This document shows, in pieces, positions 1,919 to 40,679 of a DNA stretch of 40,833 nt. This DNA is from an uncultured Burkholderiaceae bacterium. Lineage in GTDB: Bacteria; Pseudomonadota; Gammaproteobacteria; Burkholderiales; Burkholderiaceae_C. The notes under the pieces were generated by a model that was not told the DNA's origin, ran no database searches, and saw only the letters and a list, made by a program, of their open reading frames with translations. Location: contig CAZUUN010000001.1 in NCBI GenBank assembly GCA_964622735.1, forward strand, positions 1 to 40,833, given 5' to 3'. Numbering within the stretch: the stretch's first letter is position 1; every line of letters begins with the position of its first letter. Both the position numbers and the translations under genes were made by a program.

Positions 1919-1964
1919 CACTATTTATTTAATAGCTGCTCAGGCAGGTTTGGCGGCTTAAAAG
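1919..1964 (-). repeat. dispersed intergenic repeat, copy A (short form)
   Basis: Core at 1933..1957; its reverse complement is GCCGCCAAACCTGCCTGAGCAGCTA. Lies between yajC and secD. Positions 1921..1952 are identical over 32 nt to copy H (34357..34388). Confidence 0.9.
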
Positions 1965-1985
1965 TCACTTTTTATACTTATTTTT

Positions 1986-3893
1986 ATGAACCGATATCCG
2001 CTCTGGAAGTACCTTCTTATCCTCGCTGTGCTTTCATGGGCGGTGTTGTATACCATCCCCAATTTTTATGGCGAAGCGCCGGCCGTGCAGGTCTCCAGCG
2101 CCAAAGCCACGGTCAAGGTCAGCCCAGCAACCCAGCAAACCATTGAGAGCGCGTTAGCTGCCGCCAATATCCAGCCTGACTTGGTCAAGCTCGAGGGCAA
2201 TTCAATCAAAGCACGCTTTGACACGAATGAAGAGCAAGCCAAAGCGAGCGAAGTGTTGAAACACACGCTCAACCCCGATCCGAGTGACGAGGGCTACACC
2301 GTTTCGCTCAACCTCACACCGCGCACCCCCAGCTGGATGATGCGTTTGCACGCGTTGCCCATGTATTTAGGTTTGGACTTGCGCGGCGGCATTCACTTGA
2401 TGATGCAAGTGGACACGCAAGCGGCCTTGTTGCAAAAGGCGGAGGCGCGCAGCGGCGAGATTCGCCGCTTTCTACGCGAGAAAGACCTGCGCGTGAGCGG
2501 CATTGAAGTGTCTGGCAAAAGCGTGACCGCCAAATTCAGCGATACGCAAAAAGCCAATGCAGCCAAAACCGCGCTGACGGCACAGTTTCCCGATCAAGAG
2601 TTTGTGTTGCAAGGTACGGGCGAGAGCAGCCAGTTGCTGGTCAACTTCAAACCTGAAGCGGTGCTGAAAATTCAAGAAAACGCACTGCAACAAAACATCT
2701 CCACCCTGCACAACCGGGTGAATGAGCTGGGCGTATCAGAGCCCGTGATTCAGCAGCAGGGCCTAGACCGCATCGTTGTGCAACTCGCTGGCGTGCAAGA
2801 CATGGCGCGGGTGCAGCAAATCATCGGCCGCATTGCCACACTGCAAACACGCTTGGTCGATGAGTCGCTCGAAGGCCGCGCCGCCAGCATGGGCGATGGC
2901 AATGTGCCGCTGGGCTCGGAGCGCTATTTGGACGGCGACAAAATTCCTGTCATCGTCAAAAAAGACATCGTCTTCAGTGGCGACAACCTGACCGACGCTT
3001 GGGTCGACCAAGACAATAACGGCCAGCCCGCCGTGGGCGTATCACTCGACAGCATAGGCGCGGCTGCTTTCAAACAAGCCACGGGCGAAAACATTGGCAA
3101 GCGCATGGCGATTTTGCTGTTTGAAAAGGGCAAGGGCGAAGTCATCACGGCGCCAACCATTCAGGCCCGCTTGGGCGAACGCTTCATCATCAGCGGCAGC
3201 ATGAGCTCGCAAGAGGCGGCAGACACCGCACTGCTGCTGCGCGCGGGCTCACTCGCCGCGCCGATGGAAATCATTGAAGAGCGCACCATAGGCCCGAGCT
3301 TGGGTGCAGAGAACATCAAGGCAGGCTTTGACAGCGTGCTCTACGGCTTCGTCGCCGTCGCCCTTTTCATGTCGGTGTACTACATGCTGTTTGGTTTGTT
3401 CTCGACCTTGGCACTGGGGTTCAACTTGCTCATGTTGGTGGCCGCGCTGTCTATGATGCAAGCGACGCTGACGCTGCCGGGTATGGCCGCCATGGCCTTG
3501 GTACTGGGCATGGCCATTGACGCCAACGTCTTGATCAATGAACGCATACGCGAGGAGTTGCGCCACGGCTTACCTCCGCAAAAAGCCATCGCTGCGGGCT
3601 ACGACCGCGCTTGGTCAACGATTTTGGACTCGAACATCACCACCCTGATTGCGGGTTTGGCTTTGCTGGCCTTCGGCACGGGCGCGGTGCGCGGCTTTGC
3701 CGTGGTGCATTGCTTAGGCATTGCCACCTCCATGTTCTCCTCGGTGTTCTTCTCACGCGGCTTGGTCAACTGGTGGTACGGCGGCAAGAAAAAACTGCAA
3801 ACGATCGCCATCGGCACCGTTTGGCGCCCCGAGGGTGGCAGCCAACTGCCCATCCCCGATGACAGTGACGACACCACAGCCGCAGCCCAATAA
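1986..3893 (+). CDS. secD: protein translocase subunit SecD
   Basis: 635 aa. N-terminus MNRYPLWKYLLILAVL is typical of SecD. Large periplasmic domain followed by a C-terminal 6-TM block; followed by secF. Confidence 0.97.
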   Translation: MNRYPLWKYLLILAVLSWAVLYTIPNFYGEAPAVQVSSAKATVKVSPATQQTIESALAAANIQPDLVKLEGNSIKARFDTNEEQAKASEVLKHTLNPDPSDEGYTVSLNLTPRTPSWMMRLHALPMYLGLDLRGGIHLMMQVDTQAALLQKAEARSGEIRRFLREKDLRVSGIEVSGKSVTAKFSDTQKANAAKTALTAQFPDQEFVLQGTGESSQLLVNFKPEAVLKIQENALQQNISTLHNRVNELGVSEPVIQQQGLDRIVVQLAGVQDMARVQQIIGRIATLQTRLVDESLEGRAASMGDGNVPLGSERYLDGDKIPVIVKKDIVFSGDNLTDAWVDQDNNGQPAVGVSLDSIGAAAFKQATGENIGKRMAILLFEKGKGEVITAPTIQARLGERFIISGSMSSQEAADTALLLRAGSLAAPMEIIEERTIGPSLGAENIKAGFDSVLYGFVAVALFMSVYYMLFGLFSTLALGFNLLMLVAALSMMQATLTLPGMAAMALVLGMAIDANVLINERIREELRHGLPPQKAIAAGYDRAWSTILDSNITTLIAGLALLAFGTGAVRGFAVVHCLGIATSMFSSVFFSRGLVNWWYGGKKKLQTIAIGTVWRPEGGSQLPIPDDSDDTTAAAQ

Positions 3894-3907
3894 GAAAGCG
3901 CAGAATC

Positions 3908-4949: not shown

Positions 4950-7499
4950 GTGCATTCAACCCGAGGCGGGGCACCTGAAAAACACCACACTCAGCTGTCA
5001 CCTGTACCCCACCAGAGTCCTTCACGCGTGAATCAAGCCCAGAACCTCACTCAGCCGAATTTTTCCTTGGCCGCCGAAGCGCGTAAGCTCTTCGAGACGC
5101 GCGTGCAAGAAATGCTGACGCTGCTGGGCGAAGAGATCAATACGCACCTGAGCGATTTACTCAACGAGACGCGCAGCGCCCGCGAGATGCAAAGCCGCCG
5201 CGATGTCTGGGTGGCTTTCCCTAAATTGCGCGCCCAATGGCTGGCGCAAGTGCTCAGCACTTGGCGCAATATGGCCGACTCATCCAACACGCAGCCTGGC
5301 GAGCTGGGCTCGATAGGTTTGTCTCTGATTGAAGACGATTCGGTCGAGAACAAAATCTTGGCCTCGCGCTTGGCACTGCGCATACTCGACAAAGTCACCT
5401 GGGAGTTGAACGACCTGACGGTGCGCATGAAAGCGCTGGAGAATATTCCCGAGCTGAACAAAAAAGACATCCTGCGCCCCGAATCCTTGGCCACCGCTTT
5501 GGTCGATGAGTGGGTCAATCTGGGCTTGGCGCGCGAAGTCTGGCCTTTGGTACAAGACAAAGTGCAAGCCTTTCTGAGCGAGCATTTACCCGCCGCCTAC
5601 AAAGAGGTCAACGCCCTGCTGATCAGCCGCAATGTCATGAAAGAGATTGACTTGCGCAATATGGTCAAACGCACACCAGGCGGGGGTGGCGGTGGTGCTT
5701 CCGCAGCGAGTGCGAGCGGCTTTGCCAGCACCGGCGACAGTGGCTTGCAAGCGCCCCAGACAGGGCCGCAAACGGTGAACGGCGGGCAAGAGCCGAGTTA
5801 CGCCAGCTACGCACCCAATCAAGGCGGCCAAAGCGCCTATAGTGCGCCTGCTTCAGCGGGCGGGCAAGGCATGGGCTACGCGCAACCGGGCGCGCCCAGC
5901 TATGGCGCCGCCGCGCGCGCGAGCAACGCGGTCGATCCATCTGCGCCCCCCATGGTGCCAGGCGCACCTTCGCGTCGGCATTTCGGCTTTAGCGTGGCCA
6001 ATTTGCGCAGCCACGCCGAGAACATCATGGGCGGCATCAAGCGCATACTGCCCAATATGGGCGGGGGCTATGCGCACGCGCCGCAATTAGCCCAAGCCTT
6101 GGCCGCTGGCGAGGATGGCTCGGCGCCACTGGCCCAAGAGCCGCTGCTGCAAGCGGTTGATTACGAGCAAGCGCCGCCAGGCGGTTATGTAGCCGCGCAC
6201 ATTGAACGCGCCCAAAGCGCCCTGCGCGCGCACTCGAATGCGCTGAAGAAAATGACCGATGAAAAGGCCGAGAAAGCCATCATCGAATTGGTTGCATTGA
6301 TTTTTCAAAATATCATCAACGAAGAGCGCATCACACCGGGCATCCGCATTTGGATTGCGCGTTTGCAAATGCCGGTGCTGCGCTTGGCTTTGTCCGAGCC
6401 CGAGTTTTTTGAAAAGCTCGACCACCCTGCGCGTCAACTCATCGACCACATCGGCTCTTGCGTCTTGGGCTTTGGCTCGGGCGAGATGCCTGAAAAAGAG
6501 CTGGAAATCGAAATCAAGCGCATCGTGCAGGTCATTGAGCAGTACCCCGAGACCGGCAAACGCGTGTTCGAGTTGGTCTATGCCGAGTTCAAGCAATTCT
6601 TGAGCAAATACTTGGCCAACAAATCCGACTCCGCAACGCGCATGGTCTCGCTGGCGCAGCAAGTCGAAGAAAAAGAAACGCTGATCATCAAGTACACCAT
6701 CGACATGCGCGACCAGCTGGGCAAAATGCCGCTGCGCGATACCATCCGCGACTTTTTGTTCAAAACTTGGTCGCAAGTACTGGCCGTCAGCACCGTCAAG
6801 TTTGGCGCGCAAAGCGCGCAAAGCCTCGAATTCAAACAAGTCGCCCCCGATTTGGTCTGGGCCACCAGTGCCAAATCGAACCGCCAAGACCGCCAAAAAG
6901 CCATTCAAGAAGTGCCCCAGATTTTGGCGCGGCTGCGCGCCGGCATGGTGCTGCTCAACTACAGCGCCGAAGAGCAGAATCAACACATTCAAGACATCAA
7001 CGCCACGCTGACCGATGCTTTCATGTCCAAAACCGAGCCGATCGAGCAAGAGGTTTTGGCCGCACTCTCCAAACGCCTGCGCAATCTGGAGGAGTATGTC
7101 AGCGACACCGACATCAGCGGCGAGATGTCGCTCGATGCTGAGAGCATCGAAATGGTTTTAGGCATCGATACCTCAGGGCTGAACCTCATCACAGGCGAGA
7201 ACGCGCCCGAACCGCACGAATCGATCAAAGCCTGGATTAACTCCTTGACGCTGGGTTCGTGGCACCGCATCGACCACAACGGCATGGTAGACCGCGTGCA
7301 GTTTTGCTGGCGCAGCGACAAGGGGCAGCTGTTCCTGTTCTTGTCGGCTGACGGCAACGCCTATCTGTTCCAGCGCAAAGGCTTGGCGGCTTATCTCAAC
7401 ACCGCGCTCTTATTGCCGGCCGAAGAAGAAGCCCTCACCGTTTTGGCCACACGCGATGCGCTGAGTAAACTCGAAGCCAACCCCGACCGCGTGTTTTAA
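4950..7499 (+). CDS. DUF1631-family protein with an internal Gly/Ala/Pro/Gln/Ser-rich low-complexity segment
   Basis: 849-aa ORF with a GTG start at 4950; an in-frame GTG at 5028 is an alternative. Overall layout and the conserved central block (IWIARLQMPVLRLALSEPEFFEKLDHPARQLIDHIG) recall DUF1631. No catalytic motif recognised. Confidence 0.6.
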   Translation: MHSTRGGAPEKHHTQLSPVPHQSPSRVNQAQNLTQPNFSLAAEARKLFETRVQEMLTLLGEEINTHLSDLLNETRSAREMQSRRDVWVAFPKLRAQWLAQVLSTWRNMADSSNTQPGELGSIGLSLIEDDSVENKILASRLALRILDKVTWELNDLTVRMKALENIPELNKKDILRPESLATALVDEWVNLGLAREVWPLVQDKVQAFLSEHLPAAYKEVNALLISRNVMKEIDLRNMVKRTPGGGGGGASAASASGFASTGDSGLQAPQTGPQTVNGGQEPSYASYAPNQGGQSAYSAPASAGGQGMGYAQPGAPSYGAAARASNAVDPSAPPMVPGAPSRRHFGFSVANLRSHAENIMGGIKRILPNMGGGYAHAPQLAQALAAGEDGSAPLAQEPLLQAVDYEQAPPGGYVAAHIERAQSALRAHSNALKKMTDEKAEKAIIELVALIFQNIINEERITPGIRIWIARLQMPVLRLALSEPEFFEKLDHPARQLIDHIGSCVLGFGSGEMPEKELEIEIKRIVQVIEQYPETGKRVFELVYAEFKQFLSKYLANKSDSATRMVSLAQQVEEKETLIIKYTIDMRDQLGKMPLRDTIRDFLFKTWSQVLAVSTVKFGAQSAQSLEFKQVAPDLVWATSAKSNRQDRQKAIQEVPQILARLRAGMVLLNYSAEEQNQHIQDINATLTDAFMSKTEPIEQEVLAALSKRLRNLEEYVSDTDISGEMSLDAESIEMVLGIDTSGLNLITGENAPEPHESIKAWINSLTLGSWHRIDHNGMVDRVQFCWRSDKGQLFLFLSADGNAYLFQRKGLAAYLNTALLLPAEEEALTVLATRDALSKLEANPDRVF

Positions 7500-7530
7500 A
7501 GCGTTTTTGACCATTTTTATGGCTCATTTT

Positions 7531-7577
7531 GCCAAAATAAGCCGTCAAAACTGCCTGAGCAGCTATTTTAAGTATAG
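7531..7577 (+). repeat. dispersed intergenic repeat, copy B
   Basis: Core 7541..7565, GCCGTCAAAACTGCCTGAGCAGCTA. Lies between the convergent DUF1631 gene and cysS. AT-tract flanks extend across 7501..7590. Confidence 0.9.
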
Positions 7578-7587
7578 CAATTAAGCT

Positions 7588-8982
7588 TTAAGCTGCGGCC
7601 CAAGTCGTGCCTTGTGGCGAGTCTTTCAGCACGATGCCTTGCGCCAACAACTCTTGCCGAATGGCATCAGCCAATGCGAAGTCTTTGGCCGCTTTGGCGC
7701 TTTGGCGCGCGGCAATTTTTGCAGCTATCGCGACGTGGTCGTGACCTGTGGTGACGCCTTGCAAAAAGCCGAGGGGCTCGCCCTGCAACAGCCCCAAGAC
7801 GCCGCCGAGTTGGCGCAAAAGCTCAGCCAGCGCCGCGTCTTTGCTGCGGTTGATGTCGCCCGCCAGATCAAATAAAACCGCCATCGCCTCGGGCGTGGCA
7901 AAGTCATTGTCCATCGCTGCTTTGAAGCGCGCCGCATAGGCATTGCCCCAATCGATGCCGCCGCCAGGGGGCAGTGCGTGGGGCACCGCAGCCAGGGCGG
8001 TGTAGAGGCGTTTGAGGCCGCTGTGCGCGTCTTCCAAATGCGCATCGCTATAGTTCAAGGGGCTGCGGTAGTGCGTGCGCGCGACAAAGAAGCTGATGGT
8101 TTCGCCATCATAACGCTGCAGCACGTCGCGGATGGTGAAAAAATTACCAAGACTTTTGGACATTTTTTCGTTATCGATATTCACAAAACCGTTGTGCAGC
8201 CAATATTTGGCCAAGGGCTGGCCCGAGGCCCCTTCGCTTTGCGCGATTTCGTTTTCGTGGTGCGGAAACTGCAAATCAGCGCCACCGCCATGGATATCAA
8301 AGCTTTCGCCCAGCAAACTGCAACTCATGGCCGAGCATTCCAAATGCCAGCCTGGGCGGCCGCGGGCGTAGCCTGTTTCAGCGGGCTGCCACTGGGCATC
8401 TTCAGGCTCACCCGCTTTAGCCGCCTTCCACAAGACAAAATCCAGCGGGTCTTGCTTGCCCTCATCCACCGCCACGCGTTCGCCCGACTGCAGCTCATCG
8501 AGTGATTTGCCTGACAACTTGCCATAGCCTAGGAACTTGCGCACGGCAAAATTCACATCCCCACTAGGCGTGACATAGGCCAAGCCTTTGTCCTCTAGCT
8601 TTTGCACCAAACCCAGCATTTGCGGCACATAGTCAGTTGCACGCGGGTCATGGTCGGGGCGCTGTATGTGCAGGGCATCGGCATCGCGGTACATCTCGGC
8701 GACCATGCGCGTGGTCAAGGCACGAATGGGCTCTTGGTTTTGCAGCGCGCGCTGAATGATTTTGTCGTCAATGTCGGTGATGTTGCGCACATAAGTGAGC
8801 GCGTAGCCGCTGGTGCGCAGCCAGCGCTGCACGATGTCGAAAGTCACCATCGAACGCGCGTGGCCAATGTGGCACAAATCATAAACCGTCATACCGCAGA
8901 CATACATGCGCACCGCGGACGGATTCAGCGGCACGAAGGCTTCCAGCGAGCGTGACAAAGTGTTGTAAATGTGTAAAGACAT
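7588..8982 (-). CDS. cysS: cysteine--tRNA ligase
   Basis: 464 aa. HIGH motif (CHIGHARS), KMSKS motif (EKMSKSLGN), class I synthetase layout. Confidence 0.97.
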
Positions 8983-13367: not shown

Positions 13368-13413
13368 GCAAAGCGCTGCGGCACTTGTCACAGCGGCTTT
13401 GCATCATTTTTTT
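13368..13413 (+). terminator. probable terminator after purM
   Basis: GCAAAGC-G-CTG...CAGC-G-GCTTTGC forms a 7+4 bp stem with a bulge and a 12-nt loop. ATCA and a T7 run follow. Confidence 0.45.
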
Positions 13414-13430
13414 GATCAAAATAGTCGATT

Positions 13431-13470
13431 TTCCGCACTAAGCCTGCCTGAGCAGCTACGAAATAAATAG
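13431..13470 (+). repeat. dispersed intergenic repeat, copy C (degenerate 5' half)
   Basis: 13443..13458 reads CCTGCCTGAGCAGCTA and is followed by CGAAATAAATAG, as in copies A and H. The left half is diverged (CCGCACTAAG). Lies between purM and the membrane protein gene. Confidence 0.8.
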
Positions 13471-13487
13471 TAAACAGCCAAGGCTCT

Positions 13488-17228: not shown

Positions 17229-18284
17229 CTAAAAAACCCTATAAGAGCGCAGCTCACGCGTCAGCCAGGCGTAGTAAACAGGCGCTGCCACCAAACCGGC
17301 GATGCCAAAGCCTGATTCCATGATGAGCATGATGGCCAATAGCTCGTAGGTTCGAACCCGCAGTTTGTCGCCCATGATTTTGGCGTTGATGAAGTACTCG
17401 AGCTTGTGCACGCCCACCAAAAAAGCCAAAGAAGTGATGGCCAGCCAAGGCGAAATGGTCAAGCTGACCAAGGTGATGGCGGTGTTAGAAACCAAATTGC
17501 CCACGATAGGCAGCAGGCCCGCCAAAAAAGTCAAGACGATGAGGGCCATCGCCAGCGGAATTTTGTAGCCAAACAGCGGCAGCAGCACGAGCAGATAGAT
17601 GCCGGTCAGCACGGTGTTGACGATAGAGATGCGCAATTGTGCTGAGACGACATCTTTAAACGCCTCATACAACTGCTGCATGCGACCGCGCCACGCTTGC
17701 GAAAAAGCCGTGCCAGAGCCGACGCCCGCCAAGGGTGTAGACCCCGCCAAAAAACCGATGACGACGCCGATGATGATGTGGGCCAGCGCCCGCGCGGTGG
17801 TGGTGCCCCAAATTTTCAATTTATCGGGGTTGTCGTCTGACCACGCCAGCAACAAAGCTTGGGCTTGCTGCGCGTCTTGCGGCATTTTTTCTAAGATCCA
17901 GTTGGGCAGATAAGCATCGAAGCCATGCACGGTGAGCAAAATACTCTCGAGCAAATGCGTCAACTTGCCGCTGCCCCAAGCCTCGTGCAACTCAAACAGG
18001 CCGATGTAGACAAACCAAACAAAAACAGCCGTCGTAAACAGCACCACCAGTAAAGCAATCACTTCAGCCACACGCGGGGCAAAGTAGCGCTGCAAGGCAG
18101 TGACTAAAACTTGATGGATGGAATAAGTCGCCAAGGCACACAACAAGCCCAGCAAAAGATGCAAATGCAAAACCGCCACTAGTAACACTGCCGCTAAGGC
18201 GAAAGCGCCCCACTGCATCCGCGTCACGGGTGCGTGCGCCAAGGGGCTGTCGAGCGGTGGCAAACTTTGCTTGGGTGTTATCAT
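17229..18284 (-). CDS. AI-2E (PerM/UPF0118) family transporter
   Basis: 351 aa, about 8 TM. C-terminal pattern [10 protein letters not shown]...[18 protein letters not shown]...[13 protein letters not shown] fits the AI-2E family. Confidence 0.65.
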
Positions 18285-18326
18285 GCCCGCATTATGCCTT
18301 TGGTCTTAATACTCAGCCGCAGCAAA

Positions 18327-18372
18327 CACTATATTTTTAATAGCTTCTCAGGCAGGTTTGGCGGCTTAAAAT
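18327..18372 (-). repeat. dispersed intergenic repeat, copy D (short form)
   Basis: Core at 18341..18365; its reverse complement is GCCGCCAAACCTGCCTGAGAAGCTA (one core mismatch). Lies between the AI-2E gene and the hypothetical gene. Confidence 0.88.
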
Positions 18373-18439
18373 AAAGAAATGGCTTCAAATATTGCCCTAC
18401 TGAGCCTAGGAGCAACCACGCATTCGGTGGATGGCGCTT

Positions 18440-19234
18440 TCAGCGTTTGAACGCATCCGCATGTTGCAGCGCCAGCTGCGCGGCAGTCTGGAAAGTTTGC
18501 AGGGCATGCTCGAGCAAAAAAGTGTCGTCAATAAAACGCATGCGCAAATACAGCTTGCCGCGCACCAACATCAGCACCACCGCGCGATTGGCGTCGTAGC
18601 GCGGCCAAGTCAGCAGCAACTGCATCAGCTCGGGCTGGCAGATGAGCTGGGCATGTTGCTCCTCTTCCGCCAGCACAGCGTAATCGGCAGCGAAACGCGC
18701 TGGTGCATGGGGAATGCGTACTTCGCTGAACAGATTCATCCACAACACTTCTTCTGGCTGCTGTATGTCCACGCTGGCCATGGTGCTGTCGGCAAAGCCT
18801 GATTGGGCTTGGTGGTGCACATCCATTTTGAGGGTGCGGTTGACCAGCAAAAAAGCGACGTCGGGGGGCAGATCCAACTCAGCGCGCGCACGCAATTCGA
18901 TACCGCGGATGTAATTGCGCGATGGATAGCCGCGCTCGAACTTGGACAACTTGCCGTTGATATGGCCGTCGAGGGTGTAGCCTTTATTGCCTTCGCGCTC
19001 TGTGAATTTATACGCATAGGCTTGCGCAATCCACTGCACTTGGCCTAAGTGCTCAGCCGTCAGTATCTTGGGCTTGCGCGGCTCGGTGCGCGCTAGCGGG
19101 GCGGAGTTGGACGATTCGGCCTCGGCCTCATCAGGGGCGTCAGCCGCAGCAGTGGCGGGGCTGGGCGCCAGCGCACCAGGCAGCAGCGCTGCAAAGCCCG
19201 AGCGCACAAAGCCATCTTTGATCTTATTGAACAC
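18440..19234 (-). CDS. hypothetical protein (no family recognised)
   Basis: ORF 18440..19252. GTG at 19234 lies 8 nt after a GGAG and is preferred over the TTG at 19252. Acidic/Ala-Pro-rich N-terminal linker, then a roughly 200-aa soluble domain. No TM segment and no signal peptide. Confidence 0.55.
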   Translation of the reverse strand: MFNKIKDGFVRSGFAALLPGALAPSPATAAADAPDEAEAESSNSAPLARTEPRKPKILTAEHLGQVQWIAQAYAYKFTEREGNKGYTLDGHINGKLSKFERGYPSRNYIRGIELRARAELDLPPDVAFLLVNRTLKMDVHHQAQSGFADSTMASVDIQQPEEVLWMNLFSEVRIPHAPARFAADYAVLAEEEQHAQLICQPELMQLLLTWPRYDANRAVVLMLVRGKLYLRMRFIDDTFLLEHALQTFQTAAQLALQHADAFKR

Positions 19235-19374
19235 GGCGAATACTCCAAACAAGAGTGGGTCGCAAAACTGCCGCGACTGGAACGAAGAATGTGCTGACTA
19301 TTCTAGCCAAAGGCGCATGCGGATGGAGCGGGCAACAGCCCGCACAAACCCTAGCGCCGCCCTTGGCAAGCGCC

Positions 19375-19402
19375 AAGAAAAAACCCTGCCGCAGCAGGGT
19401 TT
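19375..19402 (-). terminator. rho-independent terminator after gltA
   Basis: The minus strand reads AAACCCTGC-tgcg-GCAGGGTTT followed by TTTCTT. It is preceded by a second hairpin, GGTCAG-tatt-CTGACC. Confidence 0.8.
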
Positions 19403-19443
19403 CGTTCTGGTCAGAATACTGACCTGTGAAGAGCACAGTCGCT

Positions 19444-20760
19444 TTATTTGCGGCTGGCCAATGGCGGCACATCGCGGCGCTGTGAGCCCACAAACAATTG
19501 GCGCGGACGGCCGATTTTGTATTCAGGGTCGCTGATCATCTCGTTCAATTGTGCAATCCAACCCACGGTGCGCGCGAGTGTGAAGATGCCGGTGAACAGA
19601 TTGACGGGAATGCCGATGGCGCGCTGCACGATGCCTGAGTAGAAGTCGACATTGGGGTAGAGCTTGCGGCTGACAAAGTAATCGTCTTCCAGCGCAATTT
19701 TCTCCAAAGCCATAGCCAGTTTGAACAAAGGATCATCTTCCAGACCTAGCTCTTTCAAGACCTCTTTGCAAGTCTCTTGCATCAACTTGGCACGCGGGTC
19801 GTAGTTTTTGTAAACGCGGTGACCAAAACCCATGAGCTTGACGCCCGAGTTTTTGTCTTTGACTTTCTCCATGAACTCGCCCACTTTGGCCAAGCCGCCG
19901 TTGCGTTGGATGTCTTCGAGCATGTTCAGGCACGCTTCGTTGGCGCCGCCATGTGAAGGGCCCCACAAGCAAGCCACGCCCGCCGCAATCGCGGCGAAGG
20001 GGTTGGTTCCTGACGAGCCGCACAGGCGCACGGTGGAGGTCGACGCGTTTTGTTCGTGGTCAGCGTGCAAGATGAAAATGCGGTCCAGCGCTTTTTCAAT
20101 CACCGGATTGACGGTATAAGGCTCGCACGGCGTGGCAAACATCATGCGCAAAAAGTTGCCCGAATAGCTCAGGTCATTTTGCGGATAGATAAAGGGCTGG
20201 CCCACGCCGTACTTGTAAGTCATGGCGACCAAGGTCGGCATTTTGGCAATCAAGCGAATCGCCGAAATATGGCGGTGCTCGGGGTTTTGGATGTCGGTGC
20301 TGTCGTGGTAGAAGGCCGACAAAGCGCCGACCAAACCCGTCAGGATCGCCATTGGATGCGCATCACGGCGGAAGCCACGCAAGAAAAACTGCATTTGCTC
20401 GTTCACCATGGTGTGGTTCGCCACCAATTTGTGGAAGCCATTGCGCTGCGTTTCATTCGGCAATTCGCCGTGAATCAACAGATAACAGGTGTCGAGGTAA
20501 TCGCAACCACCCGCGGCCAACTGCTCAATCGGGTAGCCGCGGTAGAGCAACTCGCCCTTGTCGCCGTCGATGTAAGTGATCGCTGACTGGCAAGAAGCCG
20601 TAGACATAAAGCCGGGATCATAAGTAAACATGCCCGTTTGCGCATACAACTTGCGGATGTCCAGCACCTCAGGGCCGATATTGCCTTGGTAGATTGGAAT
20701 TTCAACGCTGGGTTTGCCATCGCTGAAATTGAGGGTGGCTTTTTGGTCTGAAAGTTTCAT
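19444..20760 (-). CDS. gltA: citrate synthase (type II)
   Basis: 438 aa. [14 protein letters not shown] motif and catalytic His/Asp context. Confidence 0.97.
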
Positions 20761-20806
20761 GACTGGTTTTTCCGTAAGTAAAAGTTCAGTGAATGCGTAA
20801 CTGGCT

Positions 20807-22675: not shown

Positions 22676-22750
22676 TTACCCTGCCTCACTCCATCTTTGC
22701 ACCTTGCACTTAGCTTTTGGCTTCATACAAGAATTTTTCATGCCAATATT

Positions 22751-22796
22751 GGCAAAAACAGCCGTCAAACCTGCCTGAGCAGCTACTAATTTAGTA
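22751..22796 (+). repeat. dispersed intergenic repeat, copy E
   Basis: Core 22761..22785, GCCGTCAAACCTGCCTGAGCAGCTA, identical to the copy I core. Lies between the sdhB terminator and the BVMO gene start. Confidence 0.9.
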
Positions 22797-22816
22797 ATAA
22801 AAATGACAGTCTATCT

Positions 22817-25842: not shown

Positions 25843-26334
25843 TTAAATCAGGCCAAACAGCGACACAGCAAAGCAGAGCGTCGCGAGCAAACTGATGGCA
25901 AAAGTCGCGTAAGCAGACAGGCGTCCAAAAGTTTTGTCCAGGCGGTGCGAAATGTCGGTATAGACATGGCGCAGACCCGCGAACAAGTGGTGCATATAAG
26001 CCCAAAACAGCACGACGAGGATGACTTTCAAGGGCGTGAAGTGGGCGAGCGTCCACATCAGCCAAGGGGCCAAAGGTTTTTCGGCCGTAGCGTAGGGGTA
26101 CCACTCCAGAATCGCTTGGAAGTTGCCAAAAGCGATTTCAGACACCAGCGATTGCTCAAACAGCCACACCAGCAAAGGCAGGGCCAAGAACAGCAGCATG
26201 CCGCTGACGCGGTGAAAAATCGAGACCAGCGCAGCCGGGGGCATGCGGTAAGTGCGCACATCTTTGAAAACATTGATGTTGCGAAACTCGGGCTTGGCGG
26301 CGCGGCGCGCCTTGAGATCGGAGCTTTCAGTCAT
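25843..26334 (-). CDS. sdhC: succinate dehydrogenase cytochrome b556 subunit
   Basis: 163 aa, 3 TM. SIFHRVSGMLLF contains the heme-ligand His context. First gene of the sdh cluster. Confidence 0.85.
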   Translation of the reverse strand: MTESSDLKARRAAKPEFRNINVFKDVRTYRMPPAALVSIFHRVSGMLLFLALPLLVWLFEQSLVSEIAFGNFQAILEWYPYATAEKPLAPWLMWTLAHFTPLKVILVVLFWAYMHHLFAGLRHVYTDISHRLDKTFGRLSAYATFAISLLATLCFAVSLFGLI

Positions 26335-26526
26335 GGAGTCTTCCGTTTGGGGTTGATAGGTTTCTTATTTTTATTGCGCTTAGGCCAAGGCCAGCCTAGG
26401 CAACAAGAGCTTCATTTTATGCCATGCCAAGGCAAGGGCTTATCAGCCGAATAGACGCGGGTGCTAGGCGCCAACTTGCGCGCTTAATCACAGCGTTGCG
26501 CCTGAAGCCATCCACCTTAGCCCAAA

Positions 26527-26593
26527 CACTACTTATTCGATAGCTGCTTAGGCAGGTTTGATAGGCGTTATAGGCATATTTCATGCTTAAAAT
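26527..26593 (-). repeat. dispersed intergenic repeat, copy F (long form)
   Basis: Core at 26541..26566; its reverse complement is GCCTATCAAACCTGCCTAAGCAGCTA. It has an extra GCCTATAAC unit, as in copy H. Lies upstream of sdhC and downstream of the rhodanese gene. Confidence 0.88.
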
Positions 26594-26611
26594 GGCATTG
26601 ATAGCCTGTTT

Positions 26612-27028
26612 TTAGCTCTTCTCGACCGGGTAATTGGCGGCTTTCCACGCCGCCGTGCCGCCTTCTAAGCTGTAAGCCTTGTCGTAGCCTAGCTTTTTGG
26701 CGATGTTTTGCGCTTTGGCCGAACGCGCACCGCGCGAGCAAACCAAAATCACGGGCAGGCTTTTGTTTTTCACCACGGTGGGCAAGCGGCTTTCGAGCTC
26801 AGCCAGGGGAATATGCTTGGCGCTGCCGATGTGTTCAGCCGCGTACTCGCTGGCGTCACAAACATCGATGATTTGCGCTTTCTCGCGGTTGATCAGATTC
26901 ACCGCACCCGCCGGGCTGATGGGTGCTTCGCCAGCGGCGGCGCGCTTTTGCAAAGCCGGCACAAACAAGAGCGCGCCAGCGCCCAGTGCCATTAAGAAGA
27001 GATACCAGTTGTCGAGCAAAAATTTCAT
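26612..27028 (-). CDS. membrane-anchored rhodanese-domain sulfurtransferase
   Basis: ATG at 27028 (MKFLLDNWYLFLMALGAGALLF). Active-site loop CSRGARS. Divergent from gpmA. Confidence 0.8.
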   Translation of the reverse strand: MKFLLDNWYLFLMALGAGALLFVPALQKRAAAGEAPISPAGAVNLINREKAQIIDVCDASEYAAEHIGSAKHIPLAELESRLPTVVKNKSLPVILVCSRGARSAKAQNIAKKLGYDKAYSLEGGTAAWKAANYPVEKS

Positions 27029-27032
27029 GGGC

Positions 27033-27061
27033 TTAAAGGGCAGCAGACTGCTTTGTACAAT
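27033..27061 (+). promoter_or_regulatory. candidate sigma-70 promoter for gpmA
   Basis: TTAAAG (27033..27038), a 17-nt spacer, then TACAAT (27056..27061). Sequence match only. Confidence 0.3.
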
Positions 27062-27148
27062 GAGAGCCTCGAATTGTAAGTGCAAGCCTTCTTTCGCGCC
27101 CTCACAGCGCCCTCACCACCTCTTTACCCACTCTTCGGAAATTGCAGC

Positions 27149-27872: not shown

Positions 27873-29465
27873 TTACTTCAAGCCTAGGCGCTGGGCCAAT
27901 TTGTGCAGATTGCTCGCGTCTAAATCCAAGGCGCGCGCGGCAGCGGCCCAGTTGTGGCCACTTTGCTCCAGCGCTGCGGCTATGGACAAGCGCTGCGCAT
28001 TTTCTACCGCCGCTCGCATATTCAAGCCCGCTTCGGCGATGAGCGGCGCAGGCAAACCCGCGGCGCTGCGCATCGGCGCAATCGGCGGCAAGAGTGGCGT
28101 GGCTGCGCGCAATACCGGCGCATCGCTGCTCTGCTCCAAGTCCAGCAGCTCCACCGGCAGTGTGACGATGTCGGTAGTTTGCGCGCCCCGACTCAAAGCC
28201 TTGAGCGCAGCGCGACTGATCACATGCTCTAACTCGCGCACATTGCCCGGCCAGGCATATTGCAACAGTGCCGCTTGCGCTTCGGGCGCAAGGCGCAAAC
28301 TGCGCAGCCCCAAACGGCTGCGGTTCAATTCTAAAAAACGCCCCGCCAACAGCAACACATCGGCACCGCGCTCGCGCAGCGCCGGAATGTGCACGGGGTA
28401 AACCGACAAGCGATGGTACAAATCAGCCCGAAAAGCGCCGTCGCGCACGCGCTCGTGCAGCGGCCGGTTGGTGGCCGCAATCAAACGCACATTGACCTTG
28501 CGACTGCTGTCGCTGCCCAAGCGCTGAATTTCGCCATTCTGCAATACGCGCAAGAGCTTGGCCTGTATCGCCAGCGGCAACTCGCCCACTTCGTCTAAAA
28601 ATAAGGTACCGCCGTGGGCGCTCTCAAAACGCCCAGCGCGATCGGCCACCGCGCCCGAAAAAGCGCCGCGCACATGGCCAAAAAATTCACTCTCCGCCAA
28701 AGACTCGGGCAGCGCGGCGCAGTTGATTTGCACAAACACCTTGTCAGCGCGGCGCGAATGCTGCTGCAAATAGCGCGCAAACAGCTCTTTGCCCACCCCG
28801 GTTTCACCCAAAAACAAAACCGGCAAATCAGACTGCGCCACCACCAACAACTCTTTCAGCAGGTTTTGCATCACCGGACTTTGGCCGACGATTTCGGTGT
28901 CAAGCACTGGCGGCTCCTTGCCCAGCACGCGACGGGCTAAATGACCGCGCTGCAAACTCAGGCGCAAGCGTTGGTTCTCTTGCTCTAAATGGCCCATGCG
29001 TATCGCCGCTTCCAGCACCGGCCGTAAAGGCTCTAGCGCTTGGCGCGCCTGGCTGATAAAGGCGTCCGCTGCTAGCGTATCCAGCGTGAGCACACCCCAG
29101 ACGCGGCTCTCGATGTGCAAGCGCAAACCCATGCACTCGTGCACCGGCAGCGGCTCGCCTGCCTGCTCTTCTATCAAACCATCGTAAGGGTCGGGCAAAT
29201 GGCTGTCAGCATCAAACACCGTCAATTCGCGTCGCGCCAAAATGGCACTCAAGCGCGGATGCTGGCTGACGGTAAAGCGCCGCCCAAAGACCTCTTGCAC
29301 CAAACCATCGGCCGCCACCGGGTGCAGGGTGTCACCCTCTAGCCGCAACAAAGCCACCGCACCCGCATTGAAGTGCTGGCGCAAGCTGACCACCAAACGC
29401 TGCAAACGCACGGCCTGCGGCAAGTCGGCAATCAAGTCATTGAGTAAAAAGAGTTCCAGCTGCAT
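27873..29465 (-). CDS. norR: sigma-54-dependent NO-responsive transcriptional activator NorR (GAF-AAA+-HTH)
   Basis: N-terminal GAF domain. Walker A GETGVGKE. Sigma-54 contact loop GAFSGA. C-terminal HTH (NWAAAARALDLDASNLHKLAQRLGL). ATG at 29465 preferred over the TTG at 29474. Divergent from norA-norB. Confidence 0.9.
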   Translation of the reverse strand: MQLELFLLNDLIADLPQAVRLQRLVVSLRQHFNAGAVALLRLEGDTLHPVAADGLVQEVFGRRFTVSQHPRLSAILARRELTVFDADSHLPDPYDGLIEEQAGEPLPVHECMGLRLHIESRVWGVLTLDTLAADAFISQARQALEPLRPVLEAAIRMGHLEQENQRLRLSLQRGHLARRVLGKEPPVLDTEIVGQSPVMQNLLKELLVVAQSDLPVLFLGETGVGKELFARYLQQHSRRADKVFVQINCAALPESLAESEFFGHVRGAFSGAVADRAGRFESAHGGTLFLDEVGELPLAIQAKLLRVLQNGEIQRLGSDSSRKVNVRLIAATNRPLHERVRDGAFRADLYHRLSVYPVHIPALRERGADVLLLAGRFLELNRSRLGLRSLRLAPEAQAALLQYAWPGNVRELEHVISRAALKALSRGAQTTDIVTLPVELLDLEQSSDAPVLRAATPLLPPIAPMRSAAGLPAPLIAEAGLNMRAAVENAQRLSIAAALEQSGHNWAAAARALDLDASNLHKLAQRLGLK

Positions 29466-29490
29466 AAATAGCAAATATCAGTATGAAAAA

Positions 29491-29537
29491 GCCGTTTTAA
29501 GCCGTCAAAACTGCCTGAGCAGCTCATTAAAAAATAG
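29491..29537 (+). repeat. dispersed intergenic repeat, copy G
   Basis: Core 29501..29525, GCCGTCAAAACTGCCTGAGCAGCTC. Lies inside the divergent norR/norA control region, 36 bp from the norR ATG and 25 bp from NorR box 1. Confidence 0.9.
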
Positions 29538-29549
29538 CAAAGTGTCAAT

Positions 29550-29606
29550 GGTTCATTTAACCAATGATGGTTAATTTAACCAATGAATATATTGGTCAAA
29601 TATACC
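29550..29606. promoter_or_regulatory. three NorR enhancer boxes (GGT-N7-ACC)
   Basis: GGTtcatttaACC at 29550..29562, GGTtaatttaACC at 29569..29581 and GGTcaaatatACC at 29594..29606. These match the GT-N7-AC / GGT-N7-ACC NorR box described for E. coli and R. eutropha. They lie upstream of the -24/-12 promoter. Confidence 0.75.
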
Positions 29607-34290: not shown

Positions 34291-34354
34291 ACCAGAGCGG
34301 CTAGCTGTGAGCAGTGCTTAGCCCTTGCGTTGATTCAGAGATTCAGCGCATTAA

Positions 34355-34419
34355 TGCTATTTATTTAATAGCTGCTCAGGCAGGTTTGATAGGCCTTACA
34401 GGCATTATTTGCTTAAAAT
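34355..34419 (-). repeat. dispersed intergenic repeat, copy H (long form)
   Basis: Core at 34369..34394; its reverse complement is GCCTATCAAACCTGCCTGAGCAGCTA. Lies between ctpA and queC. Confidence 0.9.
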
Positions 34420-34453
34420 TTAAGCTTTTTATTCATTTTCATTTGATTCAGGC

Positions 34454-35624: not shown

Positions 35625-37220
35625 TCAGCCCAAGCTGCTGTGCGGCAGCGCTGGCAGCGCCAAACGCTCTTGCGCCAGCCCAGCAGCAAAAGCTTGGCGC
35701 CACGGCGGTAATGCCGCTGCCAGGTCGGCGCCCAAACCACGCACCAAACACACCGCTTGCGCGCCCGTGCGCGCGACTTGCGTCGCCTGGGCATAATCCA
35801 GCACGCCGCCTATGCCCACCACCGGGCAGCCCGCCATATGTGCCCACCAAGTCAAATTGTCTAAGCCTTGCGGCAGCCATGGCATGTCTTTGGTCGTTGT
35901 CGGCCAGACGGGTCCACAGGCAATATAGGCAGGAGCGATGCTACGCGCACGCGCTAACTCCCACAGGCTGTGGCTGCTCAGACCAAGCTTGACTGGCTCC
36001 TTTAGCAGCGCATGGCGCGCTGCACTGCTAAGCAGCTGCCAATCTTCTTGGCCCAAATGCAGACCCGGCGCGGCGGCTTGCATGGCCTGCTCACTGTGGT
36101 CGTTGATAAACAAATCAGCGCCAGCCGCACGCGCCATGGCAACCGCCGCCCGGATGTCTTGCGCCAACTGGGTGTGCCAAGCGGCATCAGCCGCAGCCGG
36201 TGTTTTGATGCGCAGCTGCACCAGCTGGGCACCCGCCGCTAGGACTTGTTCCAAACGCGGCAAGCTATCAACCAAAACATAAACATCGCGCGCTAATGCA
36301 GACGCATGACCCAAACGCTCGCTGTATCGCGGCGTGCATACAGCGGGCAACTCCTCACCCCAACCCATATAGGGCATGTGCTGCGGCTGCGTCGCAAAGC
36401 CCGCTTGCGCTTGCGCATGCACAGGCCCAGCGCCGCTACCCGCCGCGTAGGCATGCTCTAGCGCGTGACTCGTCGCCATTTTGGCTAAGACCAAAGCATC
36501 AGCCGCCACAAAGCCTAAGGCTAAGGCAGCCGCGATGCTAGTCGCAAAAGTGCAGCCCGTGCCATGGTTGTGTGGCGTCGGCAAACGCGGCAACGCCATA
36601 TAGCCGCTGGCTTGCGGGCTGTGCACCCAATCGAGGGCCCAAGCGCCCACAGCGCTATCGCCACCGGTGATGCAGATCGATTGCCAACTTTTTAGCCCAG
36701 GCCAGTGGGGTGTACTGGCTGCATGCACCGCTGCGCCTGCGCGCAGATAGGGCCGCAGACGCGCCACTTCGTTCGCATTGGGTGTAAACACATGCGCGTG
36801 CGGCAGCAGCTCCTGCACATAAGCTTGCAACAGTGCCTCGTCTGCCAAGTCTTTGCCCGTGCTCGCAGCCAAAACTGGATCCACCACCAGTTGCAATTGC
36901 GGCTGGCGCTCACGCAAGCGCGTTACCCACTGCACGACCACACGCACATTCTCGGCACTGCCCAGTAAACCAGTCTTGATGACAGCAGGCGGCATGTCCT
37001 CGGCCAAAGCTGCCAATTGCGCGTGCAGCAGCTCAGGCGCCTCCGGTTGCACTTGCGTGATGGCTTGCGAGTTTTGTGCGGTGATGGCGGCCACGACTGG
37101 GCACAGGTGCACGCCAAAGGCAGCCGCTGCGCGCGCGTCAGCGCTGAGACCCGCGCCGCCGCCCGAGTCATTGCCGGCAATGCTCCAGATTATGGGTTTG
37201 GCTGTGGGCGCCTTGGTCAC
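35625..37220 (-). CDS. thiDE: bifunctional hydroxymethylpyrimidine/phosphomethylpyrimidine kinase (ThiD) fused to thiamine-phosphate synthase (ThiE)
   Basis: 531 aa, GTG start. The N-terminal half (IWSIAGNDSGGGAGLSAD...ITAQNS...HNHGTGCTFATSIAA) is ThiD-like. The C-terminal half (YVLVDS...LVQLRIK...GLHLGQED...GLSSHS...YIACGPVWPTTTK...VVGIGG) is ThiE-like. Confidence 0.85.
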   Translation of the reverse strand: MTKAPTAKPIIWSIAGNDSGGGAGLSADARAAAAFGVHLCPVVAAITAQNSQAITQVQPEAPELLHAQLAALAEDMPPAVIKTGLLGSAENVRVVVQWVTRLRERQPQLQLVVDPVLAASTGKDLADEALLQAYVQELLPHAHVFTPNANEVARLRPYLRAGAAVHAASTPHWPGLKSWQSICITGGDSAVGAWALDWVHSPQASGYMALPRLPTPHNHGTGCTFATSIAAALALGFVAADALVLAKMATSHALEHAYAAGSGAGPVHAQAQAGFATQPQHMPYMGWGEELPAVCTPRYSERLGHASALARDVYVLVDSLPRLEQVLAAGAQLVQLRIKTPAAADAAWHTQLAQDIRAAVAMARAAGADLFINDHSEQAMQAAAPGLHLGQEDWQLLSSAARHALLKEPVKLGLSSHSLWELARARSIAPAYIACGPVWPTTTKDMPWLPQGLDNLTWWAHMAGCPVVGIGGVLDYAQATQVARTGAQAVCLVRGLGADLAAALPPWRQAFAAGLAQERLALPALPHSSLG

Positions 37221-38936: not shown

Positions 38937-38938
38937 GA

Positions 38939-39331: not shown

Positions 39332-39374
39332 CAATTAAAAATCCATCAGACAGACTAAAAATACTGCCACAGAC

Positions 39375-40607
39375 ATGTTCATTTATCGTCTTCCCAAAAA
39401 AATCTTGTTTCTACTCACGCGCTTGCAGCGCTTTCCTTGGAGCACAACGGCACAGGTGCTGTTGGCACGCTTTCGCGAAGACAGGCTGGGTTTGACTGCC
39501 GGTAGTTTAACCTTTACCACCATCACATCCTTGGTGCCGCTGGCCACCGTAGCGCTGGCGCTGTTCTCGGTTTTCCCTCTGTTTGCGCAAGTCGAATTAG
39601 ACCTGCAACGCTGGATGGTGCAAAGCCTATTCCCCGCCATCATTGCGCAAAACGTCAGCACCTATTTGGCGCAATTCACCAGCAAGGCGGCCCAGTTGGG
39701 TTGGGCCAGCTTGGTCTTTTTATTTTTCACCGCCGTGGCACTCATGCTCACGGTGGACAACACGCTCAATAAAATCTGGCGCGTCAAAAGCAAGCGCCCC
39801 TTGAGCCAGCGCATACTCGTTTACTGGGGCGGCATCACCCTAGGTCCCTTGGTGCTGGCCGCCAGCTTGAGTTTGAGTTCTTACGCGCTGGCGCAATCGC
39901 GCAGCCTAGAAGATCTCAGCCTGAGTTTTGCGCACTTCTTACAGTTTTGCATCATCACCGCCGCCAGCACGGGCATGTATCGCTTAGTGCCCAACACCGC
40001 CGTGCGTTGGGGGCACGCCTTTGCCGGCGGTCTTTTTGTTGCCTTGGGTGTGGATATTGCAAGGCGCATGTTGAGTATTTACTTTGCAGCGATCCCCGGT
40101 GTCTCTACCATCTATGGAGCTTTTGCCACCCTGCCCATTTTGCTACTGTGGATTTACATCCTTTGGCTGATTGTGCTCTTTGGCGCGGTCATTGCCGCCT
40201 ATCTGCCCAGCATACTCACGGGTGTGGCACGCGAGAGCACCCACCCGAGTTGGCCCTTGCAAAGCGCGCTAGAAATTTTGCAACTGCTGGCACAAGCCCA
40301 GGGCTCGCCAGCCAAAGGCTTGAGCCTGGCCGAGTTGGCGCAGCAACTGCGCGTGTCCAACCTACAGATCGAGCCCATCATTGAAATGCTGCAAAGCTTG
40401 GATTGGGTGGGGCAGCTGCGCGAAGACCAAGACGCGCCGCGCTGGGTGCTGCTGGTTGACCCGACCAGCACCGCCATCACACCCCTCTTGCGCCACACCA
40501 TCCTGCCACAAGCCTTCAGCTTGAACGCCCTCAACCACAGCATAGCTGGGCTCGACTTGCACCTGAGCGACCTGTTTGCAGAGCAGCCAGCTAGGAACAG
40601 CCTTTAA
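39375..40607 (+). CDS. yihY: YihY/BrkB family inner-membrane protein (formerly 'RNase BN') with a C-terminal soluble extension
   Basis: 410 aa. REDRLGLTAGSLTFTTITSLVPL N-terminal signature and 6 TM, followed by a roughly 120-aa helix-rich tail. Confidence 0.85.
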   Translation: MFIYRLPKKILFLLTRLQRFPWSTTAQVLLARFREDRLGLTAGSLTFTTITSLVPLATVALALFSVFPLFAQVELDLQRWMVQSLFPAIIAQNVSTYLAQFTSKAAQLGWASLVFLFFTAVALMLTVDNTLNKIWRVKSKRPLSQRILVYWGGITLGPLVLAASLSLSSYALAQSRSLEDLSLSFAHFLQFCIITAASTGMYRLVPNTAVRWGHAFAGGLFVALGVDIARRMLSIYFAAIPGVSTIYGAFATLPILLLWIYILWLIVLFGAVIAAYLPSILTGVARESTHPSWPLQSALEILQLLAQAQGSPAKGLSLAELAQQLRVSNLQIEPIIEMLQSLDWVGQLREDQDAPRWVLLVDPTSTAITPLLRHTILPQAFSLNALNHSIAGLDLHLSDLFAEQPARNSL

Positions 40608-40630
40608 AGACCGTTTTTAAGGGTATTTTT

Positions 40631-40679
40631 GACACTTTAGGCCGTCAAACCTGCCTGAGCAGCTATTATTAAAATAGTG
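40631..40679 (+). repeat. dispersed intergenic repeat, copy I
   Basis: Core 40641..40665, GCCGTCAAACCTGCCTGAGCAGCTA. Lies between yihY and the tRNA-His terminator. Confidence 0.9.

Follow-up and report, generated by a model that had tools for sequence, protein, structure and literature searches.

Nine copies of a dispersed, probably REP-like intergenic repeat with a near-invariant asymmetric core in a Brachymonas-like metagenome scaffold

A small intergenic repeat is present in nine copies on contig CAZUUN010000001.1 of assembly GCA_964622735.1, a metagenome scaffold of 40,833 nucleotides that is recorded at ENA as ERZ28614296 (MUNK22-1 scaffold_129) and in its full length is called the window here. 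The family to which these copies belong is real and abundant, extends to related bacteria, and is apparently undescribed. It is probably a non-autonomous dispersed repeat similar to the repetitive extragenic palindromic (REP) elements, with a core that would be recognized by a trans-acting protein and with slow gains of whole units. [quoted passage not shown] What is unusual in this family is the non-palindromic and hyper-conserved core, an arm with phased T-tracts, and the existence of genus-level dialects.

Genes were assigned in the window by combining NCBIfam and Pfam with the gene calls that accompany the contig. They include the housekeeping genes yajC-secDF, cysS, purM, obg, rplU-rpmA, gltA, sdhCDAB, norR, scdA-norB, queC and thiDE-thiG, among others. 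The CysS protein shares 86-87% identity with its nearest metagenomic relatives and 75% with the Acidovorax spp. protein, which places the host, a Brachymonas-like bacterium, in the Comamonadaceae.

An earlier note, made by reading this DNA without database searches, had listed nine copies of the repeat (A through I). A search of the window with the 15-mer CTGCCTGAGCAGCTA, allowing up to two mismatches, reproduces every one of them in position and strand. In 100 dinucleotide-preserving shuffles the same search yields 0.12 ± 0.36 matches and never reaches nine, which confirms the observation. The 25-mer core with up to three mismatches gives seven matches where none are expected, and reveals the identity of the E and I cores that had been noted previously. 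Copies C and F escape this longer search because the left halves of their cores are degenerate, as had been described for C. The 32 nucleotides said to be common to copies A and H are also present.

All nine copies reside in intergenic DNA, which makes up only 2,995 of 40,540 nucleotides (7.4%) and about a quarter of which is occupied by the repeat. Eight of the 18 spacers of at least 60 nucleotides carry a copy and copy I sits past the last gene, giving a density of approximately one copy per 4.5 kb; no relic copies were detected in the other spacers of the window at E<0.1. Five copies are on the plus strand and four on the minus strand, and GC skew is uniformly negative there, so no orientation bias exists. 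Similarly, 57 family copies point towards gene starts and 46 towards gene ends, an unbiased distribution that agrees with the earlier proposal of a DNA-level repeat oriented independently of flanking transcription. The copies, both those of the window and those of 30 loci with more than one, are singletons 0.7-11 kb apart that occur in both orientations and never in tandem. Profile searches of loci fetched from relatives (designated by L numbers below) usually place neighboring copies 1-5 kb apart.

Profile alignments define a unit of approximately 65-90 nucleotides, instead of the 45 or so proposed at first, that consists of a 5′ T-tract arm, the core and an AT-rich 3′ arm. The 5′ arm spans about 40 nucleotides and is roughly 50-70% conserved in sequence, always with three T-tracts (alignment columns 19-23, 31-34 and 41-43). 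These tracts, followed by an A-tract in the core (columns 52-54) and then by the 3′ arm (near column 75), form a series of AT-rich patches spaced about 10.8 nucleotides apart. The core reads GCCGYCAAAM-CTGCCTGAGCAGCTAT, and its final 16 nucleotides are essentially invariant. Copies F and H merely carry GCCTATCAAAC in place of GCCGYCAAAM while the 5′ arm has the same length in all copies, and the short and long length classes that had been distinguished are not supported.

On the reverse strand, the core has an [A/G]TAG head that is followed by a 4-bp dyad, CTGC-TCAG-GCAG. Six of the nine copies in the window have ATAG as their head, whereas C and E have GTAG and G has GAG; among 170 family copies, about 134 have ATAG and about 19 have GTAG. 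On the forward strand, CGTC is located four nucleotides 5′ of the dyad (GCCGTCAAAC). The dyad CTGC-N4-GCAG had been considered the only one in the core. It is indeed present, but directly 3′ of it the arm of the window genome contains a mini-hairpin, CTATT-N5-AATAG (5 bp, AT-only), which is frequently followed by TG, and these two are the only recurring stems. Single-strand DNA folds of the copies are weak (−2.9 to −11.5 kcal/mol, z of −2.2 to +1.5). The judgment that the repeat in this form is neither a classical REP hairpin nor a terminator holds up. There are no covarying column pairs among the 170 copies, where the highest mutual information is 0.19 bits. A hairpin of 7-9 bp, TTTTGGC(R)/(C)GYCAAAA, appeared promising by eye and was rejected, as its arms are only about 50% complementary in the 170 copies and their pairing does not exceed that expected from column composition.

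Our searches also established the range of the family. An exact-match scan of GTDB, with one genome per species, located the 20-mer CAAAMCTGCCTGAGCAGCTA in only two species representatives, a Brachymonas sp. metagenome-assembled genome (MAG) and an 'uncultured Burkholderiaceae' MAG, at a total of 22 loci; two further single matches were taken as chance occurrences. The core is present in at least 120 contigs from JGI/ENA metagenomes, many of which are labeled as activated sludge. A profile built from the nine window copies identified 188 copies in the fetched loci, several of them at contig ends. Among close relatives the distribution is patchy, with copies present in some and absent at syntenic spacers in others. 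A plasmid collection contains no match to the window dialect and one match to the dialect of Ottowia (see below), which is inside the aceF gene of Diaphorobacter.

Rfam returns no matches to the window repeats at gathering thresholds. At E≤10 only one match overlaps any copy, an asX2 hit below threshold (27 bits versus a gathering threshold of 70) that extends across copy E and the sdhB terminator. The family is not listed in the REP surveys that were consulted. The literature was also searched, both for sequence strings and for the topic, with incomplete coverage such that absence is not proof, and no description of a repeat of this kind in Comamonadaceae was returned. These results bear out the earlier statement that the repeat belongs to no named family.

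Repeats of related design were found in several other genera of the Comamonadaceae. An insert in the TlyA protein of Ottowia reads ATAGCTGCCAGCGCTTGCCAGGCGGGCGCTAGAGGCCGATTT, and the same unit of about 69 nucleotides recurs five to six times in 20.8 kb of that genome. One copy of the same design is present in Ramlibacter and another in Diaphorobacter, the latter inside aceF, and Acidovorax sp. HDW3 carries copies reading ...GCTAACGCTTATCCATCAAGCGCTAGCAGCTCTTGTTTTTATAGCAAC. Common to the dialects are an A/T-rich arm, GGCC or GAGCC, a GC-rich hairpin with a stem of 6-9 bp, GCAGCT[A/C]T, an AT loop and ATAGC. With all four of these dialects the window family shares its flanks (…GGCC … GCAGCTAT…ATAGC). 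The Ottowia stem, GCGCTTGC-nnn-GCGGGCGC, supplies the palindrome that characterizes REPs, and stem partners differ among the Ottowia copies (TT/GG, TT/AA and TC/GG). When read on the other strand, the sister dialects have an [A/G]TAG head beside this genuine palindrome. The window family is the Brachymonas-lineage dialect of a repeat superfamily that spans the Comamonadaceae, and its hairpin has been reduced to GTCAAAC-CTGCCTGA, leaving the 4-bp dyad.

The Diaphorobacter copy comes from a 28-kb record (L152, NZ_CP080763.1, Diaphorobacter sp. MNS-0 'plasmid unnamed2') that is typed as a plasmid, yet carries aceE-aceF-lpdA and may be a chromosomal fragment. The Ottowia-type copy is situated in the first linker of its aceF and encodes ..KPAPAPAAQAPAAIE...

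Comparisons of orthologous spacers show that copies are gained as whole units, in either orientation, and are then stably inherited. The junction between thiG and thiDE measures 9 nucleotides in the window and 69 in the Burkholderiaceae MAG mentioned above (L017, 875-943), where an element reaches from the stop codon to the start codon. Between purM and a gene for a 589-amino-acid protein, the window has copy C in the sense orientation, L155 (88.6% amino acid identity in purM) has a copy in the opposite orientation, and L154 (83.6% identity) has only a GC-rich terminator and no copy; the orthology of this spacer was checked. The 3′ flank of cysS likewise contains an antisense copy in the window and in L153, a sense copy in L155, and none in L154. 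Indeed, L154 is a close relative (CysS 81% identical) that lacks copies throughout 19.8 kb of largely syntenic DNA. That orthologous spacers can be empty, filled or oppositely filled indicates that copies were gained independently. Whenever two contigs are 94-100% identical, a copy is present in both members of the pair, from which we conclude that turnover is slow. A species keeps its copies stably, and gain and loss take place between genera.

Some neighboring features of these loci were recorded in passing. The thiDE gene of the window (35625-37220, minus strand) is a thiD-thiE fusion with Phos_pyr_kin and TMP-TENI domains that lies directly downstream of thiG. In L154 (GCA_964544605.1), the 800-nucleotide spacer downstream of obg carries two classical GTAG palindromes, GTAGGGGCGTTGCATGCAA(C/G)GCCCCTAC, at 2975-3002 and 3389-3416, each inside a 125-nucleotide duplicated block. 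The DUF1631 gene, a single open reading frame (ORF) in the window (~5028-7499), is called as two adjacent ORFs of 282 and 540 amino acids in the 86%-identical relative L153 (2926-5397), which might reflect a frameshift or an assembly error.

The earlier observation that no copy lies inside a coding sequence applies to the window, where nine of nine are intergenic, but not to the family as a whole. Among relatives, genes contain about 6-10% of the copies, in frame, corresponding to approximately 12-15 of the 188 in the fetched loci. One such insert, in TlyA, reads ..ISIAAQAGFSPENAKNILKN... Brachymonas-like genomes, Ottowia, Ramlibacter and others all have a TlyA insert at this site, and it is missing from two homologues of 251 amino acids. 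One whole unit constitutes a 23-amino-acid insert in the RsmJ protein of Ottowia, and a further copy resides in the AceF linker. Pfam domains span the insert in KsgA/RsmA, RNase R (RNB domain), RibD, a nucleotidyl transferase, a 2OG-Fe dioxygenase, LapB and UvrA. These examples show that genic copies are gained occasionally, in frame, in tolerant protein loops. A different outcome is seen in PepN (L008, L043 and P0121), where the element replaces about 17 codons, such that the protein reads ..FSAPIIHISPPNLPEQLLILQHD.. versus ..FSAPVVLDYDYSDAQLLTLLAHD.. in other Comamonadaceae.

The earlier note had offered three candidates for the nature of the repeat. Among these, a MITE- or REP-like mobile repeat is the best supported, both because the same spacers are empty, filled or oppositely filled in relatives and because the sister dialects are palindromic; a nucleoid-protein or recombinase site and an uptake-type signal fit less well. 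According to the reading that we consider probable, a trans-acting protein would recognize the invariant 16-mer together with the adjacent small hairpins and thereby spread the element. The nearest precedent for such a mobilizer is the REP-associated HUH/Y1 transposase (REP-associated tyrosine transposase, RAYT). Continued recognition, or conversion between copies, could then hold the core near-invariant while the arms drift. Any effects on the host would be secondary, possibilities being intrinsic bending of the DNA, outward promoter-like hexamers and AT-rich translation start regions.

Several results weigh against this assignment. A tblastn search of the window and about 0.6 Mb of loci with E. 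coli RayT found nothing better than E=0.56, although this is weak evidence since host genomes were not scanned whole, and the plasmid collection yields no Comamonadaceae match to a RAYT. The stem measures only 4 bp, compared with 5-13 bp in published REP families, and is thus too short for a REP palindrome. All copies are singletons, with no inverted dimers, REPINs (paired REPs) or bacterial interspersed mosaic elements (BIMEs). Terminal inverted repeats and target-site duplications are not definable: the arms have no inverted similarity in either the nine-copy or the 170-copy alignment, and no duplication was detected among filled and empty sites that are too diverged to reveal one. No parent insertion sequence (IS) bearing the ends of the element occurs in the fetched loci. 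Mobility must also be slow, given the lack of any presence/absence difference among the nearly identical contig pairs.

Three further difficulties of the same kind concern the sequence of the copies. Orthologous copies agree at about 95% of the 16-mer, as opposed to about 67% for their own 5′ arms and 75-88% for the flanking genes. Ascertainment bias explains part of this difference, since it was the core that led to many of the copies; the unbiased pair is copy B and its L153 counterpart. Such a disparity is not predicted by simple insertion and decay. Moreover, the TlyA-embedded copy carries the dialect of each genome despite its equal protein position across genera. Lastly, the PepN patch arose with no indel or change in length and uses the leucine codons CTA and TTA, which are presumed to be rare at such GC content.

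These last observations raise the question of whether a sequence-specific homogenizing drive, in the form of core-directed short-patch gene conversion or of biased uptake plus recombination, operates across the Comamonadaceae. We regard this as unlikely. If true, it would mean that a non-palindromic 16-mer is kept near-invariant across the thousand or so copies of each genome even as their arms drift, that orthologous copies such as the one in TlyA track lineage dialect, and that coding sequence can be overwritten in a length-neutral manner, as in PepN.

The proposal that the core was spread or homogenized as an uptake-signal-like or conversion-driven sequence and not by transposition seems quite improbable to us. 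An invariant core with helically phased AT tracts of free sequence is characteristic of the uptake signal sequence (USS) of Haemophilus, which the repeat resembles in its architecture. Its core is also much better conserved than the arms or the neighboring genes. The equal frequency of both orientations, the genus-level dialects with a TlyA copy in local dialect, and the indel-free PepN copy with its atypical leucine codons also fit this proposal. However, the conserved core spans 16-25 nucleotides, compared with 9-12 for known uptake sequences, and its density is just one per 4.5 kb or so. USSs and the DNA uptake sequences (DUSs) of Neisseriaceae are common in genes, whereas the repeat nearly avoids coding DNA (none of the nine window copies and about 6-10% of those in relatives), and the relaxed 15-mer search adds no genic matches in the window. 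Whole units of 65-90 nucleotides appear, vanish and flip at orthologous spacers, and point-mutation drive does not yield such changes. The window contains no competence genes, and we know of no uptake specificity in Comamonadaceae. We presume that GCCGTC.. and ..CTGCCTGA.. resemble DUS dialects of Neisseriaceae, but the organism does not belong to that family and this likeness was given no weight.

Alternatively, each copy could be a binding site that serves the host, acting every 4-5 kb as a selected chromosome organizer or insulator for a nucleoid-associated or topology protein (gyrase, IHF or a Fis-like protein) or for a recombinase. REP elements and BIMEs of E. coli bind gyrase and IHF. 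To one side of the sequence-specific core, AT tracts recur with a phase of about 10.8 bp, which suggests bent or wrapped DNA, and the conservation of this core at the level of sequence and not structure would suit protein binding. One copy per spacer, fairly regular spacing, and the retention of orthologous copies between genomes with 82% nucleotide identity in cysS are in keeping with such a role. Nevertheless, the syntenic spacers of L154 manage without copies, and these sites are therefore dispensable. Selection on about 1000 single sites is unlikely to keep 16 nucleotides invariant, and sites are gained in either orientation and within genes. Compared by eye, neither the IHF consensus WATCAANNNNTTR nor those of sigma-54 and LexA match the core. 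In view of these facts, a host-functional site is a doubtful explanation for the family.

A role in RNA, whether as a small RNA, a terminator or mRNA stabilizer, or a 5′ leader or promoter module, is the least likely general function and a very improbable one: many copies in relatives do end 10-45 nucleotides before a start codon in the sense direction, RNA would tolerate the G·T pairs that one strand of the Ottowia-dialect hairpin forms, and the reverse strands of copies A and G carry sigma-70-like hexamers (TTGGCG-17-TATACT, 7 nucleotides from the secD ATG, and TTGACG-17-CATACT, with 9 of 12 hexamer positions matching in each), but Rfam offers no relevant match up to E≤10, covariation is absent and folding weak, orientation is near random, several copies (A, B, E and H) lie between convergent genes or antisense inside an operon, and the family consensus forms no promoter. 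A sigma-70 promoter as the general function was rejected on the basis of this consensus and of the unbiased orientation, even though the individual copies A and G carry hexamers.

The individual copies of the REP-like repeat are described below, with extents given as the alignment ranges of the profile built from all nine. Copy A (1912..1992, minus strand, core at 1933-1957, profile E=1.7e-17) is located between yajC (1550-1903) and secD (1986-3893), antisense to both, and its T-rich 5′ arm reaches into the secD start codon. Copy B (7501..7587, plus strand, E=2e-19) takes up the entire 88-nucleotide spacer between the convergent DUF1631 gene, which ends at 7499, and cysS (7588-8982, minus strand). 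Its orthologue in L153 has the same orientation and is identical at 24 of 25 core positions and at 16 of 16 in the 16-mer, while cysS is 82% identical in nucleotide sequence. Copy C (13391..13482, plus strand), which combines a GTAG-type head with the degenerate left core half, lies between purM and the 589-amino-acid gene, sense to both, and its 5′ arm is continuous with the run of T residues that ends the purM terminator.

Copy D (18323..18408, minus strand, E=1e-18) has GAGAAG for GAGCAG in its core and is found between an AI-2E transporter gene (17229-18284) and a gene of unknown function (18440-19234). Copy E (22719..22805, plus strand) has a GTAG-type head and is antisense to both of its neighbors, a flavin monooxygenase gene and sdhB, which are on the minus strand; the sdhB terminator at 22826-22848 adjoins it. 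Terminator-like hairpins are thus found at both C and E, where terminators had been reported. Copy F (26518..26608, minus strand), a GCCTATCAAAC variant with CTAAGC in its core, separates sdhC (25843-26334) from a gene for a rhodanese (26612-27085). Copy G (29464..29547, plus strand), in which the core ends in GCTC, is situated in the divergent regulatory spacer between norR and scdA-norB. Copy H (34345..34428, minus strand) is the other GCCTATCAAAC variant and is antisense to both flanking genes, an S41 peptidase gene and queC. Copy I (40597..40687, plus strand), downstream of a BrkB/YihY gene (39375-40607), gives the best match to the family profile (E=3e-21).

Two of these copies adjoin features that could be regulatory. 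The secD gene has a genuine start at 1986 (MNRYPLWKY..) and no Shine-Dalgarno sequence, and the hexamers on the reverse strand of copy A with their short gap to the ATG (1958-1988) have the geometry of a leaderless-mRNA promoter. The promoter-like sequence on the reverse strand of copy G (29508-29480) faces norR. Just 3′ of copy G, and outside the repeat family, a direct repeat ..GGTTCATTTAACCAATGATGGTTAATTTAACCAATGA.. (29548-29600) provides candidate regulator sites for the nitric oxide-response genes of this divergent spacer.

Other observations are unrelated to the repeat. At the end of the scaffold (40785-40833, minus strand), Rfam gives a sub-threshold match to a 5′-truncated tRNA (23.8 bits, E=1.1), and ARAGORN predicts no tRNA in the window. 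In Acidovorax sp. HDW3 (L156, CP049885), a CRISPR-like array is present near cysS at 18047-21134, with a 61-nucleotide period and the repeat TCCCCGCTCGCGCGGGGCAACC.

If the repeat is REP-like as we propose, then the Comamonadaceae, a family of abundant bacteria in soil, plant disease and the treatment of wastewater, have an apparently undescribed family-wide repeat system with dialects. The copies at contig ends suggest that it contributes to breaks in short-read assemblies, and crude ORF lists read through the repeat and may thereby yield spurious small ORFs in annotation. The repeat also adds inserts of 20-30 residues to conserved enzymes (TlyA, RsmJ, KsgA, UvrA and AceF), and its core can readily be used to mark the lineage of Brachymonas-like genomes within metagenomes. 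Since the window dialect has lost the hairpin that defines REPs and is still abundant, with a hyper-conserved core, it offers a natural test of whether REP-type recognition depends on structure or on sequence. Likewise, the family can serve to test maintenance by conversion versus transposition.

Among known systems, REPs and their RAYTs invite the closest comparison. REPs are imperfect palindromes of 20-40 bp, with stems that measure 6-13 bp where the tag is GTAG (5 bp in Thauera) and 8-9 bp where it is CGTC, and with tag variants GYAG or GTRG that do not include ATAG (PMC3733652). Like them, the repeat described here reaches high copy number, is mostly extragenic, often abuts stop or start codons, persists vertically and forms lineage-specific sequence types. 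It carries an [A/G]TAG head directly beside a dyad (ATAG/GTAG-CTGC-TCAG-GCAG on the reverse strand), and its sister dialects have a GC stem of 6-9 bp, with G·T pairs in Ottowia copies. Intragenic REPs have been documented, among which those in uvrA and in genes that encode RNA-binding proteins stand out (Di Nocera et al. 2013, PMC3733652), and occasional in-frame copies of the present repeat are found in the same kinds of genes. It differs in that the conserved part is asymmetric and 16-25 nucleotides long with a 4-bp stem, and in that the unit is 65-90 nucleotides with a phased T-tract arm instead of 20-40 nucleotides. Furthermore, the head is mostly ATAG and not GTAG, the palindromic dialects have six nucleotides between head and stem, and the copies are singletons with no RAYT linked to them.

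The Rickettsia palindromic elements (RPEs) occur as in-frame units in conserved genes, where they add 20-30 residues in tolerant loops. The whole-unit inserts in TlyA, RsmJ, KsgA, UvrA and AceF of relatives are of this type, whereas only about 6-10% of the copies are genic here, with none in the window, and the PepN copy arose without insertion. MITEs such as the Correia elements of Neisseria and the enterobacterial repetitive intergenic consensus (ERIC) or intergenic repeat unit (IRU) sequences are similarly small, dispersed intergenic sequences that do not code for protein and whose presence varies between orthologous sites; they too can supply promoter-like hexamers and break short-read assemblies. 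For the present repeat no terminal inverted repeats, target-site duplication or parent IS were found, and conservation is internal and not at the ends. With the USS of Pasteurellaceae and the DUS of Neisseriaceae it shares a core with phased AT tracts, the use of both orientations, family-wide dialects, and the creation of copies within genes at the cost of codon choice, as in PepN. Compared with these uptake sequences, its core is two to three times longer, its copies are nearly all outside genes and less dense, and its gains and losses involve whole units.

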